DNA from: Barthelona sp. PCE
Lineage: Eukaryota
Direction of reading: 5' to 3'
Length of the DNA: 64,000 nucleotides
Assembly: GCA_040285745.1 (NCBI GenBank)
Contig: JAUFOR010000002.1
Coordinates: 1,674,001 to 1,738,000 of the forward strand
Part shown: positions 10,165 to 37,727 of the stretch, one piece after another
Layout of the letters: every line of letters starts with the position of its first letter
How positions within the stretch are numbered: the first letter of the stretch is position 1
Translations under genes and position numbers: made by a program
The notes under the pieces: model-generated
What the model saw: the letters and a program-made list of their open reading frames with translations, nothing else
What the model was told of the DNA's origin: nothing
Databases searched by the model: none

Positions 10165-11502
10165 ATGCGTGAAATCGTCCACATTCAAGCAGGCCAGTGC
10201 GGTAACCAGATCGGTAGCAAGTTCTGGGAGACCATTGCTGATGAGCACGGTGTTGATCCCACTGGTTCTTACCAGGGTCAATCCGACCTCCAATTGGAGC
10301 GTATCAACGTTTACTTCAACGAAGCTGCCGGTGGCAAGTATGTCCCCCGTGCCGTTTTAGTTGATCTTGAGCCTGGTACTATGGATTCCATTCGTGGTAA
10401 CGCTTATGGCCATCTTTTCCGTCCCGATAACTTTATCTTCGGTCAGACCGGTGCCGGTAACAACTGGGCCAAGGGTCACTATACCGAGGGTGCTGAGCTC
10501 ATTGACTCCGTCCTCGATATCGTCCGTAAGGAGGCTGAGTCTTGCGACTGCCTTCAGGGTTTCCAGATCTGTCACTCTCTCGGTGGTGGTACTGGTGCCG
10601 GTATGGGTACCCTCCTCATTGCCAAGATCCGTGAGGAGTATCCCGATCGTCAAATGTGTACTTTCTCCGTCGTTCCTTCCCCCAAGGTTTCTGATACCGT
10701 CGTTGAGCCTTATAACTGTACTCTTTCTGTTCACCAGCTTACTGAGAACTCCGAAGAGACTATGTGTATCGATAACGAAGCTCTTTACGATATTTGTTTC
10801 CGTACCCTTAAGCTCACCACCCCTACCTATGGTGACCTCAACCACCTCGTTTCCATCGTTATGTCTGGTGTTACTTGCTGTCTCCGTTTCCCCGGTCAGC
10901 TTAACTCCGATCTCCGTAAGCTCGCTGTTAACTTGGTTCCTTATCCTCGTCTTCACTTCTTCATGGTTGGTTTCGCTCCCCTCACTTCTCGTGGTTCTTC
11001 TGCCTACCGTCAGATCACTGTTCCCGAGCTCACTTCTCAGATGTTCCACTCTGGTAACATGATGGCTGCCTCTGATCCTCGTCACGGTCGTTACTTGACC
11101 TGTTCCGCCCTCTTCCGTGGTCGTATGTCCTCCAAGGAGGTTGATGAGCAGATGCTTAACATCCAGAACAAGAACTCTTCTTACTTCGTTGAGTGGATTC
11201 CCAACAACATCAAGTCTTCCATTTGTGACATTCCTCCTAAGGGTCTTAAGATGGGTGTTACCTTCATTGGTAACTCCACCTGTATCCAGGAGCTCTTCAA
11301 GCGTGTCCACGATCAGTTCACCAAGATGTTCCGTCGTAAGGCATTCCTTCACTGGTACACTGGTGAGGGTATGGACGAGATGGAGTTCACCGAGGCTGAG
11401 TCCAACATGAACGATCTTGTTGCTGAATACCAACAGTACCAGGATGCCGTTGCTGAGGAGGAAGGCGAGTACGAAGAGGAGGAAGATGATTTCGAATACT
11501 AA
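10165..11502 (+). CDS. TUBB: Beta-tubulin
   Basis: MREIVH, GGGTGAG and NNWAKGHY motifs, with strong codon bias. Confidence 0.99.
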
Positions 11503-11506
11503 GGTG

Positions 11507-12028
11507 TTTGCTATGACAATTTCCCTCAACTCAACTGAATCAATCAATAAACAAACTAGCTGTTTCCAAAAGCCACAATTATGCTGTATGCAGAACATAA
11601 CATATGCCAAAATATCTGTTTAAAGGAAAGAACACTTGTTTGAAAGCAGGCATTTACTATTGTTTTAACATAAACGACTCAATGATTGTTTTCGAACTGT
11701 TAATGCATTAATATGGGTCTCAAAGTGCTGGGGCATGTGCTATAAAGGCTTTAGAGTACACTATTTGTGCAAAAACTTGCACTATCTGTTTTCTTCCGTA
11801 TACCAAGATTTTATCTCGACTCAATCCTAGATTGTAGTTTTATTCAAGAATTGGCGTATCAAAGAGCAGTAGAAGACGATGTTATCATCCACGTACGACT
11901 ACAATAGTTTACTATTGAATAACTTGTATTTGTATCAGACCCATCGAACAGTACATCTTTAATCATAATAACCGTGTTTCTTATTTGTCCGTATTTTCAT
12001 TTAATAAAAATTTTTTCCAATAAATTTT
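11507..12028 (+). repeat. Left arm of a 522-bp inverted repeat
   Basis: Reverse complement of 15883-16404. One mismatch seen by eye, at 11528. Confidence 0.97.
11767..11953 (+). ncRNA. Candidate H/ACA-like RNA, copy A1 (possibly snR30/U17-like)
   Basis: Hairpin, then ANANNA (AGAAGA/AGACGA), then hairpin, then ACA-GTA. Stems covary with the paralog at 12326-12505. Confidence 0.6.
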
Positions 12029-12325
12029 AGTGGTTGATATTTATCAATCAATCCTGCACATGTTGCCCATATTCAGCAGCACAATTTCAGTGCTAAGCTC
12101 AAATCAAACATTTGCAAAAAAAAACAAGAAGTCGATCATATAGTGGCATTAAATCGTCATAATCATGCGAAAACCCAAAAATAAGACAATAAAACGTTAG
12201 TAAAGAAAAAAATCAATATCCTAGAACAATGCAGGGTACAAAAACTTTTAAAAAGCCGTTTTGCCTCATTTTATTAATACACATGGGTTTGTTTGGGAAT
12301 TAGTGGTGCACTTAACTTGCTTAGA

Positions 12326-12512
12326 TGTAGAAAAACCTGCACTATCATTTCTTCGTGTTATCATGCGTTCTTCTCGTTGCTTTCGAGCAATTGTTTTCAC
12401 AACGCGGCGTATCAATAGAAATGTAGAGAGTATTTGATGTTATCATCCACGTGCGACTACAATAGGTAACCTATTGAATAACTCGTTCTTGAATCAGACC
12501 CATCGTCCAATT
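12326..12512 (+). ncRNA. Diverged paralog B of the candidate H/ACA-like RNA
   Basis: Shares TGCACTATC, GGCGTATCAA, GATGTTATCATCCACGTRCGACTACAATAG and ATCAGACCCATCG with A1. H box is AGAGTA; CCA stands in place of ACA. Confidence 0.55.
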
Positions 12513-12759
12513 TTTATTCATAATTATGTGTATATTTACCCTGTTTCCCCAACAATAATAATAAAATGCTCTTGCAGTGTTGAGGTTTCAAATAATGTTT
12601 TTATTCTTTAGTATTTTCTCTAAAACATATTAAATTGGTGCTCTGTCCATTTGTATATTAATTAGAATGCGCTTCCATGAAAAATTAGCTAAAAAAAAAG
12701 AAGAATTTGCCGGAATAACTGCGACTTGCACATAAGAGCTTTACAACAAATAGATATCA

Positions 12760-15036
12760 TTAGAAACGGTTGATTCCAAACAGCTGGTCTATCAAATTAA
12801 CAATAGTCCACTCTCTTCCTCTCTCCGTCATTGAACGCGGGAAGTTATGGAAGTGAGTCAGCGACTCAAAGTACAATTTGTCCAACATTTCTGATGCACG
12901 ATGTTCAGTAATCCTCCGCAATAAATTCTGAACGCCAAAGTACCAATCTTTTGAGCTCCAGGCTATCAATGCCCGAATATAATATGCAAACTTGTACAAT
13001 TGTGAATCATCATACTTCCCGCTATTTAATATTGGAATCAGCTCCTCTATTGATCGCAAAAAGCGGGCATCGTCCCAATCTAACCCCACTAACACGCCAC
13101 AGTTCGCGTTGATAAACGGATACTCATAACGACCAATTTTCACCCATTGTGGATTCTCCAAAGTGCGCTCTGCAATTGTTTTAAAACCTGGCGTCTCCGA
13201 TGGATAAATAACAATAGGGTTCAGGTAACGCTTCTCAATTGTAGAATCAACTTTCCTCCTCAACCTAGGATAAAGACCATTAAATGTGTCTTCGCGGTTT
13301 TCTGAACGACTTTCAACATACGCACGTGCCCAATGTACCGATAGGGGCAAGTTGTCTATTCCCAGGTGTGGATATTCCTCAGGCGATAACATAGTGTGTG
13401 TTCCTGGATTGTTGTAATCACGCAGGAAACTATTAATGAACATTCGTAGACGTGGAAGTTCAATCTGAGTGCGATTGTGTGTTCTTAAATGAGGTTTAAT
13501 GAATTCAAACATAGAAATCAGATCAAGATCTGCATCACGACCATGATGTCTGTGCACTGGTCTACCACCATCATATACTTCACGCTGTTCAAAATGATCA
13601 TAATTAATATTCTCCCAATAATATGGGGCACGACAGAACACGTTAAAGAATTCATTGTCTTCACCAATCTTGTTCTTTAGTGTGGACAATGATGTATAAT
13701 CGAAAAGTTGAGCCCAAAACTGAATAAGAGATGTTTCATTACTTCTCTGCATAACAATTTTCTGTAAATCTTCAACAAGTTCTTCATTGTAATGCTTGTA
13801 CATAACAACATAATCATCCGCATCTGCGTTCCAATCATTAACTTCAAAACCAAAAGCGTTCATTTGATCAGAACGATATGAATAAAGGTAAGAAGTGTCA
13901 GTGATGTTCATGCAATGCAACCAGCACCACATTATTGCAAATATTGCAAATTTCTCTCGTTCTTGATCAAATGTCATGTAATAAGTGTCATAAAAAATAT
14001 CCAAATACTGAGATACACTAAGCAGTTCTTCAATATTAGGTAATGTGAGGAAATACTTCGTCGCAACTTCTATAAGCGGAGAGGGTGTTGCATAATGATC
14101 TTCCATAAATGTAAGAGACTCTCTAAATATATCATCAACAATCGGTTTTGTAATCTCAATTGGCTGTGAGAAAAAATTTCTAAACGTATAAATCTTTTCC
14201 AAATACGTTCCTCTATTCATATAGTGCATGAATATTCTACGCCCATCAATCTTTGGGCTCAATGATGGGATCTTCATGAATAATATATCAAGTGGAATTT
14301 CACCATATCGAACCGTGACATTTCTTTGCGACAAGCAATCAAGAATACCGGGGTACTTTTCGACTGAAAGGTTAACGTAGTGTGGCTTAAGCATTGGAAG
14401 AGCAACCTTACCATTACGGTAAAACCGCTTAAACATCATGTAAACAGTCTCCTCCCAACAGGAGTGGAAATCGGATTTCCAATCAACGTTAAAGTCATTG
14501 AAAAATGTGTGAATATACTCTGGTAAAATTGTCGAACCAAGTGAGTGAAAATCCCACCAAAAATCAATGACTTCATCCGTTGATCCTTGTTTAAACTGAA
14601 ATCCTAATTTGTAAGCAATAAAGAATACAGGGAACACGTCAAATATGCTCTTCTCGTGCTCATCTAATCGATTATAAAATTGGAAATAAAGACGCTGGTA
14701 AAGTGGCTCTTCTCCCTCATGCTCTTCTTCTTCACCAAAGTATTCGATATAGTATGGACCCGGGTGTGCATCTTTCATATCAACATATGTATTCAAAAGC
14801 TTCTTCCACTGATTTAAAGTGAGAGAATTTGGTTTAACAGATCTAATTCCTGTTTCAAGAATATTGTGCAAAAATATGGCACCATATTCATGACTTGCTA
14901 TCGCTAAAAGCAGATCGTATGATATTGAACGAGAAGAACATATGTGATCCACACAAATATTGTATCTTCCTGAGTTAAAAGATGTTACAAAATGATCCTC
15001 GCAGTTTAAATTGTGTCTAAATTCAGGTTTCTCCAT
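12760..15036 (-). CDS. Orphan 758-aa protein rich in aromatic residues, function unknown
   Basis: Long intact ORF. No recognisable motif and no transposase signature seen. Confidence 0.8.
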   Translation of the reverse strand: MEKPEFRHNLNCEDHFVTSFNSGRYNICVDHICSSRSISYDLLLAIASHEYGAIFLHNILETGIRSVKPNSLTLNQWKKLLNTYVDMKDAHPGPYYIEYFGEEEEHEGEEPLYQRLYFQFYNRLDEHEKSIFDVFPVFFIAYKLGFQFKQGSTDEVIDFWWDFHSLGSTILPEYIHTFFNDFNVDWKSDFHSCWEETVYMMFKRFYRNGKVALPMLKPHYVNLSVEKYPGILDCLSQRNVTVRYGEIPLDILFMKIPSLSPKIDGRRIFMHYMNRGTYLEKIYTFRNFFSQPIEITKPIVDDIFRESLTFMEDHYATPSPLIEVATKYFLTLPNIEELLSVSQYLDIFYDTYYMTFDQEREKFAIFAIMWCWLHCMNITDTSYLYSYRSDQMNAFGFEVNDWNADADDYVVMYKHYNEELVEDLQKIVMQRSNETSLIQFWAQLFDYTSLSTLKNKIGEDNEFFNVFCRAPYYWENINYDHFEQREVYDGGRPVHRHHGRDADLDLISMFEFIKPHLRTHNRTQIELPRLRMFINSFLRDYNNPGTHTMLSPEEYPHLGIDNLPLSVHWARAYVESRSENREDTFNGLYPRLRRKVDSTIEKRYLNPIVIYPSETPGFKTIAERTLENPQWVKIGRYEYPFINANCGVLVGLDWDDARFLRSIEELIPILNSGKYDDSQLYKFAYYIRALIAWSSKDWYFGVQNLLRRITEHRASEMLDKLYFESLTHFHNFPRSMTERGREWTIVNLIDQLFGINRF

Positions 15037-15882: not shown

Positions 15883-16404
15883 AAAATTTATTGGAAAAAA
15901 TTTTTATTAAATGAAAATACGGACAAATAAGAAACACGGTTATTATGATTAAAGATGTACTGTTCGATGGGTCTGATACAAATACAAGTTATTCAATAGT
16001 AAACTATTGTAGTCGTACGTGGATGATAACATCGTCTTCTACTGCTCTTTGATACGCCAATTCTTGAATAAAACTACAATCTAGGATTGAGTCGAGATAA
16101 AATCTTGGTATACGGAAGAAAACAGATAGTGCAAGTTTTTGCACAAATAGTGTACTCTAAAGCCTTTATAGCACATGCCCCAGCACTTTGAGACCCATAT
16201 TAATGCATTAACAGTTCGAAAACAATCATTGAGTCGTTTATGTTAAAACAATAGTAAATGCCTGCTTTCAAACAAGTGTTCTTTCCTTTAAACAGATATT
16301 TTGGCATATGTTATGTTCTGCATACAGCATAATTGTGGCTTTTGGAAACAGCTAGTTTGTTTATTGATTGATTCAGTTGAGTAGAGGGAAATTGTCATAG
16401 CAAA
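15883..16404 (-). repeat. Right arm of the 522-bp inverted repeat
   Basis: Reverse complement of 11507-12028. Confidence 0.97.
15958..16144 (-). ncRNA. Candidate H/ACA-like RNA, copy A2
   Basis: Identical inverted copy of A1 inside the right repeat arm. Confidence 0.6.
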
Positions 16405-16549
16405 TACTCTATGGTTAATTCTAAGGTTTGTCACCATAAATGTTTATAAAAGATCCATATGCCAAAAGAATACTTGAAAAGACATAGAAACTCAGTGATT
16501 CTTGTTTCCCCTTTCTTGTCCCTCTTACGACTAATTTTTTGTTCATAAT

Positions 16550-35633: not shown

Positions 35634-37727
35634 TTAAAGGTTTTTGAAGTCGAAAGTACTGTGATGACGAACGTAATCCTCGTATTCTTCCCAGGTTCCT
35701 TCATATCTTCTCATATGCTTATTTTCAATGGTATAAATATCGTCACAAGTTGCTTGTAATAAAGAACGATCGTGAGAAACAACAATAATTGCACCTTGGA
35801 AATTATTAAGTGCTGAGATAACGGCTGCACGTGTATCAATATCAAGATGGTTAGTAAGCTCATCCATCAATAGTAAGTGAGGGTTTTTGCGGAATGTAAT
35901 ATTTGCAAGTGACACACGGGCTTTTTGACCACCAGACAGAGTTTTGATTTTCTGAAGTGACTGCTCACGTGTGATGCCAAACATAGCCAGATGTCTCCTC
36001 ACCGTCTGCTCGTCTTCACCTTCGAACTGGTTCATAATATGCTCAAGTGGTGTGTAGTCTGCGCCTAATTGCTCCAGATGATGCTGTGCAAAATATGCAA
36101 TTGACAAGTTAGCAGTACCAACCTTACAGAAACCCACAGTTGGTTTTAGCAGACCAGCCATAATTTTTAACAGCGTTGATTTACCGATAGCGTTGGCAGC
36201 TACAATAGTGAATCGTGAATCGCGTTTGATTTCCAGATCAATGTTCTCTAAAATAAGAGGGTTATCACCGTAGCCAAATGAGACATCCTCGAGCTTCATG
36301 AGTGTGTCACGTTGGACACGGCCAACGGGTGGGAAGTTGAATGTCATGCTAGCGTCTGTCGTCTCTAACTCAATGAGAGAAATCTTATCAATTGCCTTAA
36401 TTCGTGACTGAGCCATATTGGCCTTCTTAGCCTTGTATCTGAAACGGTCAACAAAAGTCTGCATGTGAGCAATACGAGCGTCCTGTTTTGCTCGTTCTCT
36501 GCGTTGGGTCTCAAGCTGTCTACCTCTGATTTCGAGGAAGGCATCGAAATTACCCTTATAGTTAACCAAACTCTTTGTGGTATGGTTTAAGAACACGATT
36601 TGGGTTGCGACGGCGTTGATAAACTCCTTGTCGTGAGAAACCATGAGCATGGTGCCCTTGAAACGATGGCGGAGATAAGCCTGTAAGAAGAGAATCGATT
36701 CAATATCAAGATGGTTTGTAACCTCATCACCCAAAAGAAGATCAGGGTCAGCAGTGAGTGCTGCACAGATTGCGAGACGCATACGTAGACCACCAGAAAG
36801 ATACTTGACAGGGCGGGTGACCATCTCAGCTGTGAAGCCGAAACCACTGAGACAAACATGTGCTCTTGCTCTAATTTGATCGACACCCATTTCAGCGAGA
36901 CGACTGTTGAGATCAGCGATATCTTCGTCAAACTGTGCATCAAGTCTGCGACGATATGTGGAACCAATGTCAGGGTGCAACAAAAGACATGTGTCAATAA
37001 CAGAAGTATGCAAGGGTGGGATTTCTTGCTGGATGAATGCGATCGTACCGACGTCGAGTCTGATTTTACCCTCATAAATGGCACGTAGCAATGTGGATTT
37101 ACCCTTGGCATTGTTACCATATAAGAAGGTACACTCGCCTTCACGGAAGGAAAGGGTAGCCTCCTCCAATAAAATATTTGAGGGATATCCCATTGTGATA
37201 TCCTCGACCAATAAGGCAGGGAAACCACGAACATCTCCATGATAACAAATGAAACCGTCATCTTCATCCTCTTCACGTTTGGACTTGCGGAGAATAACTT
37301 TTTCACCACGTTTTTGGCGCTTAGCAACCATACGCTGGTAGTCCAGTTCAAAATACAAATCGTTAACGCTTTTAAAATCCTTAAGGGGATCATCTAACTC
37401 TTGTTCTTGCTGGAGATCCTTAATGATGTTATGCCCTGTGATTGCATAATCCAACTTCTTTGCATTGAGTGATACTGATGTTAGCTTCTTGCGCTCAGTG
37501 TTGTTAATCTGTGATTTATATTTAATAAGCTTATTGCACAGTTTCATAGCAACATCATCTGTATCTGCAACGTCTGCGTCGATGAAAATCTCAGCAAGTG
37601 CATCAAATAGATCCTGACTTGTGTCTGAGTCTTCAATTACACCAATAACGTACGAGAGAATAGCTTCATCATCAATATGTTCAATTTTGTCACCTAAAAC
37701 GGCGTTTAATGCTTCTCTTGGGTTCAT
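35634..37727 (-). CDS. ABCF3: ABC-F family ATPase, ABCF3/Gcn20-like
   Basis: Two NBDs and no TMD; LSGG, DEVTNHLD, FVDRFRYKA..A.MAQSRIK and YFAQHH. Confidence 0.88.
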   Translation of the reverse strand: MNPREALNAVLGDKIEHIDDEAILSYVIGVIEDSDTSQDLFDALAEIFIDADVADTDDVAMKLCNKLIKYKSQINNTERKKLTSVSLNAKKLDYAITGHNIIKDLQQEQELDDPLKDFKSVNDLYFELDYQRMVAKRQKRGEKVILRKSKREEDEDDGFICYHGDVRGFPALLVEDITMGYPSNILLEEATLSFREGECTFLYGNNAKGKSTLLRAIYEGKIRLDVGTIAFIQQEIPPLHTSVIDTCLLLHPDIGSTYRRRLDAQFDEDIADLNSRLAEMGVDQIRARAHVCLSGFGFTAEMVTRPVKYLSGGLRMRLAICAALTADPDLLLGDEVTNHLDIESILFLQAYLRHRFKGTMLMVSHDKEFINAVATQIVFLNHTTKSLVNYKGNFDAFLEIRGRQLETQRRERAKQDARIAHMQTFVDRFRYKAKKANMAQSRIKAIDKISLIELETTDASMTFNFPPVGRVQRDTLMKLEDVSFGYGDNPLILENIDLEIKRDSRFTIVAANAIGKSTLLKIMAGLLKPTVGFCKVGTANLSIAYFAQHHLEQLGADYTPLEHIMNQFEGEDEQTVRRHLAMFGITREQSLQKIKTLSGGQKARVSLANITFRKNPHLLLMDELTNHLDIDTRAAVISALNNFQGAIIVVSHDRSLLQATCDDIYTIENKHMRRYEGTWEEYEDYVRHHSTFDFKNL

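Follow-up and report, generated by a model that had tools for sequence, protein, structure and literature searches.

Two candidate box H/ACA snoRNA genes behind a beta-tubulin gene, with a predicted target in the large-subunit rRNA

The stretch of DNA considered here (the window, 64,000 nucleotides, G000:C2:1674001-1738000; plain positions follow its own numbering) carries two RNA copies, A1 and B, in a 1.25-kb gap between a beta-tubulin gene and a 762-codon minus-strand frame. Their sequences, A and B, can be assigned with high confidence to the box H/ACA snoRNAs. Most likely, they guide the modification of one base of the large-subunit (LSU) rRNA, and a plain LSU pseudouridylation guide is the best explanation of the locus, a reading that draws on modelled pairing and is held with somewhat more confidence than doubt. 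The sequence itself shows two hairpins, an H box and an ACA box in A, a 3′ box that also marks the U2 and U3 genes, and genes for Cbf5 and a Gar1-family protein. Several results count against the guide reading: the shuffles in which the fold was left free, the lack of ACA in B, weak folding z-scores, and a hairpin 1 without a significant target.

According to this explanation, A and B would be independently transcribed plus-strand H/ACA snoRNA genes of ~170-190 nt. The 3′ box would mark where the transcript ends or is cut, and trimming would then leave three nucleotides past the ACA. Each hairpin would be bound by Cbf5, Nop10, Nhp2, and Gar1. The hairpin-2 pocket would pair with both sides of an LSU uridine, which Cbf5 would convert into pseudouridine. 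Hairpin 1 would be structural or act as a weak 5.8S guide. B is non-canonical, and the chances that it works with a variant box or is decaying are about equal. As a plain guide, the RNA would add another member to the H/ACA snoRNAs, from a protist genome that has no annotation.

Locus, copies and fold

The source contig set is a eukaryotic genome of 10.2 Mb in 8 contigs, with densely packed open reading frames (ORFs). The blastn self-comparison of the window places a third copy, A2, inside a 525-nt inverted duplicate of 11504-12028, which is 99.6% identical to its source; the duplicated segment begins 2 nt past the tubulin stop codon. The only differences between the two units (2 of 525 bases) fall outside the RNA, and A2 therefore gives no comparative evidence; A appears to have been duplicated recently as a whole unit, yielding A2. 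The sequence-only reading, from which the analysis started, had described three copies within 11767..12512. The repeats are real, but the distinct sequences are only two, and A2 falls outside that interval, on the minus strand (table).

Within the window, a 93-nt alignment of A and B shows 83% identity (E 1e-18). Identity is highest in hairpin 2 (0.87) and the leader (0.84) and falls to 0.58 in hairpin 1; the 60-nt flanks give 0.44 and 0.58, the latter value coming from a heavily gapped alignment. All three matches of a DNA search of the genome are the window copies. A covariance model likewise recovered only A1, A2, and B from the seven sequence sets searched, and neither of the two metagenome pattern scans yielded a relative. 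The Rfam search of the window, which had been proposed as a check with the snR30/SNORA73 and other H/ACA models, gave no match at the gathering score and three chance-level matches at E up to 10.

The 762-codon frame (12760-15036) lies between B and the inverted duplicate, is preceded by ~850 nt of very AT-rich DNA, and has no Pfam family. Elsewhere in the window, a 29-nt direct repeat, 93% alike (35836-35864 and 36700-36728), is found within a long minus-strand frame.

Table. Features of the RNA locus in window numbering
Feature	Position	Strand	Basis or remark
Beta-tubulin gene preceding the RNA genes (context)	10165..11502	+	ORF and translation; best PDB matches are beta-tubulins
A1 gene unit, including its 3′ box and the region before it; origin of the inverted duplicate	11504..12028	+	blastn self-comparison
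A1 conserved leader, possible promoter/initiator element or RNA 5′ leader	11767..11785	+	16/19 identical to B
A1 hairpin 1	11786..11869	+	Invariant block 11853-11862
A1 H box (ANANNA)	11871..11876	+	16 nt from putative hairpin-1 guide start
A1 hairpin 2 (basal stem, pocket, upper and apical stems)	11877..11946	+	Single and consensus folds, target scans
A1 hairpin-2 pocket	5′ strand 11882-11889; 3′ strand 11933-11941	+	
A1 ACA box	11948..11950	+	14 nt past first paired guide base
A1 3′ box	11957..11969	+	Common to other ncRNA genes of the genome
B conserved leader	12327..12345	+	
B hairpin 1	12346..12423	+	Base changes keep stems; pair probabilities ~0.9
B H-type box	12427..12432	+	19 nt from putative hairpin-1 guide, beyond canonical reach
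B hairpin 2	12435..12505	+	Pocket strands 12440-12447 and 12492-12500; guide bases same as A
B CCA at ACA position	12507..12509	+	Tail 4 nt shorter than in A
B 3′ box	12512..12524	+	Commonest form of the box
Inverted duplicate of A1 unit	15883..16407	-	Contains A2 (15958-16144) and its 3′ box (15942-15954)

On the plus strand, A and B each fold into two hairpins with a hinge and a tail, the layout of an H/ACA RNA. The ANANNA box reported earlier is present in the hinge of A1 and B, although so short a motif can also occur by chance where the hinge is rich in purines. The basal stem of hairpin 2 is followed by ACA in A1 and A2 and by CCA in B, exactly as described before, while the H/ACA-box variants listed in the literature passages (AUA, AAA, AGA) retain both adenines. 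B retains its leader, stems, and guide bases, and its 3′ box has the form seen most often. On its own, hairpin 2 of B folds weakly, with a basal pair probability of 0.04, and it reappears in the consensus fold. The predicted 3′ end of A1 is at 11953, and that of B near 12512; a second ACA occupies 11953-11955 in A1. The invariant block of A1 hairpin 1 can pair with 5.8S rRNA, with the rm2 element of the 18S rRNA segment ES6, or with its own 5′ strand.

The proposed covariation of the stems holds for hairpin 1, in which two of the seven basal pairs carry two-sided changes between A and B and the apical stem is wholly replaced. It does not extend to hairpin 2, whose 18 consensus pairs include no two-sided change, four one-sided changes with pairing kept, and no broken pair; one further pair of the upper stem drawn in the sequence-only reading is U-U in B. 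The folding energy is unremarkable, as shuffled sequences were as stable as the plus strand in 17/200 (A) and 93/200 (B) cases and as the minus strand in 59/200 and 93/200. The G-U pairs, which make up 4 of the 36 pairs modelled for A and 3 of the 38 for B, favour the plus strand, clearly in A and slightly in B, and the model energies of the plus strand and its minus mirror are -20.1 vs -8.1 for A and -22.8 vs -20.9 for B. Taken with the hairpins, the boxes, and the 3′ box, they support the H/ACA architecture and the orientation first suggested, and the identical blocks, stems, and boxes named at that time are all in place. Minus-strand readings (C/D-like, U6-like, and SRP-like, by their motifs) were rejected because the G-U pairs and the 3′ box favour the plus strand. 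Readings of A and B as U1, U3, U4, or U5 were dropped by eye, and the real U3 was found elsewhere.

A 3′ box behind noncoding RNA genes

A T-rich 13-mer stands just behind A, 6 nt past the ACA, and just behind B. The same 13-mer is located behind U2, and a variant of it behind U3. The pattern built from A1, B, and U2 has 24 matches in the genome, against 10 for the reversed-pattern control; four of the 24 are circular because these loci supplied the pattern. Outside ORFs of at least 100 codons lie 22 of the 24, and allowing one mismatch raises the count to 113, against 64 for the control. U3, which was left out of the pattern building, has the box variant directly behind its end and a leader-like element before it. 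The box, together with the strand evidence, supports A and B as probable plus-strand noncoding RNA genes.

At several other box loci, the box is immediately preceded by C/D boxes or by ends resembling ACA, and one of these loci has a weak SNORD31 match (E 0.82). The box is seen behind C/D-like RNAs (L042 with its paralog L156, L043, L049, L053, and L062), behind ACA-like RNAs (L046, L047, L056, L059, and L065), and behind a tRNA-like gene (L115). The leader-like element occurs before L044 as well. A loose leader pattern is found at 5/23 box loci and at 2/23 in antisense, and the leader evidence is weak for that reason; its interpretation as a general mRNA promoter was dropped, the element being found in 2 of 42 genes.

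A comparable signal has been described in Giardia lamblia, in which a 12-nt motif for the 3′ processing of noncoding RNAs occurs at the 3′ ends of snRNAs and snoRNAs (PMC3510501, cited passage). Both are short T-rich boxes at or behind the 3′ ends of such RNAs and have a similar core (PMC3510501). The box described here differs in its length of 13 nt, its start, and its TAAT end, and the likeness would fit homology and convergence equally. In Spironucleus, the Giardia motif is reported, in the passage cited, as not conserved (PMC6679479). By analogy, the box may direct 3′ cleavage in this genome, and it would represent a Giardia-like 3′ signal in another compact genome. Rfam misses most noncoding RNA genes of this genome, and the presence of the box behind U2, U3, A/B, and ~20 other mostly intergenic loci offers a direct way to list them.

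The U3-like genes form an inverted pair 2.3 kb apart (L074/L075, G000:C2:147664-147864 and 150149-150349), the same layout as A1/A2, and their Rfam match (E 1.5e-4) is below the family cut-off. U2 (L029:1490-1670, G000:C1:606049-606221) is strongly diverged, with 51.7 bits at a cut-off of 46. The genome search with Rfam gave no match for U6, though the long ORFs of the window suggest few introns. Another box-ended RNA (L054, G000:C3:34400-34596) has an Sm-like site between hairpins, and is possibly U4 as judged by eye; a 9-base word of it recurs in the 5′ strand of the A/B pocket.

The pocket of hairpin 2 and its predicted LSU target

In both copies, the hairpin-2 pocket can form 12 Watson-Crick pairs around a uridine of the organism's own LSU rRNA. 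The target would be the uridine G000:C6:44002 or its neighbour 44003, which correspond to positions 1892/1891 of the Rfam LSU model. The pairing is split into 8+4 or 7+5 pairs with an unpaired U-N between them, again in both copies, and these two registers tie. The distance to the box is 14 nt from the first paired base and 15 from the upper stem, both in A (ACA) and in B (CCA). Such a geometry conforms to the published rules for guides, which ask for at least 8 pairs with at least 3 per side (PMC7991803, PMC6800473) and a spacing of 14-15 nt (PMC2664660). The pocket emerges from the consensus folding without manual input. A and B differ at a single pocket base, which faces the target without pairing. 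Of the rRNA bases in the pairing, about half depart from the Rfam consensus, so the pocket is matched to the LSU sequence of this organism itself.

The significance of the fit depends on how strictly the pocket is defined. With the consensus fold fixed, Watson-Crick pairs only, a guide start 14-15 nt from the ACA, and both copies required, none of 500 shuffled rRNA sets reached 12 pairs. With looser registers and G-U pairs allowed, 4/200 shuffles for A and 5/200 for B match the LSU score. When the fold was left free, the score was equalled by 19/100 shuffles for A, and the LSU site was not recovered for B. Several target models were tried after the data had been seen, and more than one of them gave matches near p 0.02; values of this size carry little weight because of such post hoc examination. 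Of these models, the LSU fit is the one that applies to both copies and keeps to the published geometry.

For hairpin 1, a 5.8S site ranks top or second among the targets and reaches the minimum pairing but not significance, since shuffles were as good in 69/200 and 128/200 cases. This target, the uridine G000:C6:46135, lies at Rfam position 63, and its identification as the human Psi55 site was rejected; by the numbering that we take to apply, it is neither of the two human sites. The latter are given as 55 and 69 in the passage cited (PMC10227372).

The whole RNA resembles two-hairpin H/ACA guides of the yeast snR34 type and those of Giardia and Trichomonas in its hairpin-hinge-hairpin-tail layout, ANANNA and ACA boxes, bipartite pocket of 12 pairs, and spacing of 14-15 nt. 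One usable pocket per RNA has likewise been predicted for the Giardia and Trichomonas guides (PMC3228867, cited passage). Unlike these guides, A and B match no Rfam family, B has CCA and a short tail, and the pocket also fits a site in the rDNA spacer.

Complementarity to ES6 and competing roles

The genome contains protein genes of both systems that are relevant to such an RNA. Cbf5 is present with its catalytic Asp kept (L028:1501-2673, G000:C2:2099497), as is a Gar1-family gene; there are also two Fcf1-family genes, one of them closest to Utp23, and a Kri1-like gene. Guide snoRNPs and an snR30 system are therefore both expected. The ES6 elements were located by likeness to yeast primers (PMC9176245, cited passage), with rm1 at 18S 793-798 and rm2 at 18S 825-830 of the organism's own rDNA.

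A doubtful alternative is an RNA with a dual role in guiding and processing, similar to yeast snR10, in which hairpin 2 guides LSU modification and may dock on the rDNA spacer, while hairpin 1 grips ES6 rm2 and rm1 with the basal side of its loop. The invariant block of hairpin 1, its only long one, pairs with rm2 over 7 (A) or 8 (B) bases beside the basal stem, and among 4000 random strands 3.3% (A) and 1.4% (B) were as good; for the summed rm1 and rm2 energies, the random draws gave 0.75% and 1.4%. In A, the block lies 8 nt from the H box, one base beyond the snR30 spacing, an excess that is tolerated in yeast (PMC2664660, cited passage). In a screen for m1/m2 motifs, A passes in both hairpins, as happens with 2 of 5117 same-spacing site pairs, ES6 being among those examined. 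The pocket of hairpin 2 also fits a canonical site of 11 pairs (uridine G000:C6:48897) 779 nt upstream of 18S in 4/4 rDNA loci examined, and none of 1000 spacer shuffles reached 11 under the strict settings. The presence of the Utp23- and Kri1-like genes and the lack of a convincing snR30 in the searches of the rest of the genome would also agree with a dual role.

Against it, B passes the screen in neither hairpin, its m1-like bases lie 5-6 nt off the stem, its spacing to the H box is 11 nt, and one distinct pass among 58 regions is at chance level because a single pass has a false rate of 3-4%. Compared with shuffles of their own strands, the ES6 sums are modest (3-6% for hairpin 1 of A and B and hairpin 2 of A, 41% for hairpin 2 of B), and ES6 ranks from 219th to 1345th of 5232 site pairs. 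With the fold free, 14/200 shuffles equal the spacer site. The likeness of the spacer site to the LSU site covers the paired word alone, the unpaired base being different, and the spacer fits only the register of the second uridine. Pairing with U3, whose hinge can bind 10 bases at 117 nt before 18S, traces the transcribed spacer no further than about -117 or -456, short of -779. The rDNA repeat itself (L007, G000:C6:40400-50300) is ~7.6 kb long and includes a 5S-like gene in the same orientation, ~940 nt before 18S.

All snR30 RNAs described in the cited passages of PMC2664660 have m1/m2 in the 3′ hairpin, and the literature consulted, a thin basis for claiming absence, yielded no snR30 with these motifs in the 5′ hairpin; a dual role would place the snR30 function there. 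It is similarly improbable that the RNA is a rearranged substitute for snR30, with the ES6 clamp in the 5′ hairpin and an active guide in the 3′ hairpin that reads one 12-base word twice, in the LSU and near the beginning of the pre-rRNA spacer. If so, a single H/ACA RNP would contact both ribosomal subunits and the spacer. Partial precedents are yeast snR10, which has a 3′ LSU guide hairpin and a conserved single-stranded element in the 5′ hairpin (PMC2879522, cited passage), and snR37, an H/ACA RNA with guide and processing/scaffold roles (PMC13015370, cited passage). Unlike in these, the second role here is predicted and would concern ES6 or the upstream spacer, and the comparison is one of features, not of sequence.

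An orphan H/ACA RNA or another stable Pol II-type noncoding RNA, with a target among U6, U1, U4, U5, or mRNA, or working as an inverted clamp on the LSU, is a rather unlikely explanation. It would account for B, which lacks ACA yet keeps its stems and box, and for the short motifs that hairpins 1 and 2 have in common on both strands, as if one had been duplicated from the other. For the inverted clamp, the 5′ pocket strand pairs with 8 bases of the LSU that lie 56 nt before the main site, and 0/100 shuffles reach the inverted score, though the same 3′ site is reused. Neither an Sm site, nor C/D boxes, nor the hallmarks of RNase P, MRP, or SRP were seen by eye, U2 as a target gave nothing above score 6, and the canonical LSU fit is present in both copies, all of which argues against this explanation.

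The identity raised as possible in the sequence-only reading, a classical snR30/U17, in which hairpin 2 would clamp ES6 rm1/rm2 from the basal side, recruit Utp23 and Kri1, and be needed for 18S cleavage with no guide role, is very improbable. A and B share with snR30/U17 (SNORA73) a conserved 3′ and a variable 5′ hairpin, a similar hairpin size, a short leader, partial complementarity to ES6, and a genome with Utp23- and Kri1-like genes, and they are multi-copy like U3. In snR30, two perfect 6-bp helices with rm1 and rm2 are needed, seven bases before the ACA (PMC2664660, cited passage). At this register, the 3′ strand of hairpin 2 pairs with 2/6 rm2 bases, and the block that had been named as m2 reaches -2.0 kcal/mol, where an ideal m2 would give -8.4. 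In the register two bases higher, A pairs 6/6 with one G-U (-7.7), over 8 bases in all, whereas B pairs 5/6 with a mismatch (-3.0). The best rm2 complement of A ends 9 nt before the ACA and 4 nt off the basal stem, which departs from the snR30 placement. The 5′ strand pairs with rm1 in 5/6 positions or in 8 pairs around a 2-nt bulge (-5.9 vs -7.6 for the ideal).

An snR30 identity of hairpin 2 is thus not supported, because rm2 pairs 2/6 at the seven-base register, B is mismatched at the higher one, and rm1 is mismatched or bulged; in the proposed check of ES6 complementarity, neither defining helix is perfect, and the hairpin fits an LSU target instead. Two further differences from snR30/U17 are that the best rm2 complement kept in both A and B is in the 5′ hairpin and that the 3′ pocket fits a modification target, a 12-pair match that would, on the snR30 reading, have to be due to chance; moreover, the window has no SNORA73 match at E up to 10. 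The 26-nt rRNA spacer between rm1 and rm2 folds weakly, and its helix and the Utp23 and Kri1 genes, though present, are not specific to A/B. The literal model of the reading, both motifs complementary to one place and 15-45 nt apart, has no match in the genome.

A separate snR30 was sought with several patterns. In the first, 13/14 matches were in ORFs and the last had no fold. In the second, 7/9 were in ORFs, which leaves L035 (no fold) and L040. Of the patterns anchored on the box, one gave two coding-looking matches and the other three matches, two of them A1/A2, and none of the 34 non-coding loci of 78 one-mismatch box loci, among the matches listed, passed the m1/m2 screen. L040 (G000:C8:112419-112472, minus strand) is intergenic, directly after the stop of a neighbouring gene that looks like, presumably, a fluoride exporter. 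As a possible snR30, it has an m1 of canonical appearance, a perfect stem of 7 bp, an m2 that forms 5 pairs with rm2, and an ACA 5 nt later; its basal stem is weak, and it has no clear 3′ box. The last hairpin of L048 (G000:C2:1447411, minus strand), a structured RNA with the box at its end, is complementary to the rm2 region over 10 bases and to rm1 over 6, and its rm2-complementary bases are paired within its own stem.

That the locus is no RNA gene but a duplicated tubulin 3′ flank or another DNA element, as the weak folding z-scores and a duplicate starting right after the tubulin stop codon might suggest, is hardly credible, given that the stems are kept through base changes while the flanks diverge, that a noncoding RNA 3′ box stands behind both copies on the plus strand, and that A has H/ACA boxes with a fitting guide spacing.

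As regards the enzyme of the preferred guide reading, Cbf5 of this genome has Ser-Ser-Thr before the catalytic Asp where yeast has Gly-His-Ser. The position of the yeast His is probably that of the His matching TruB H43, which in archaeal Cbf5 is crucial only for guide-independent activity (PMC4478342, cited passage).
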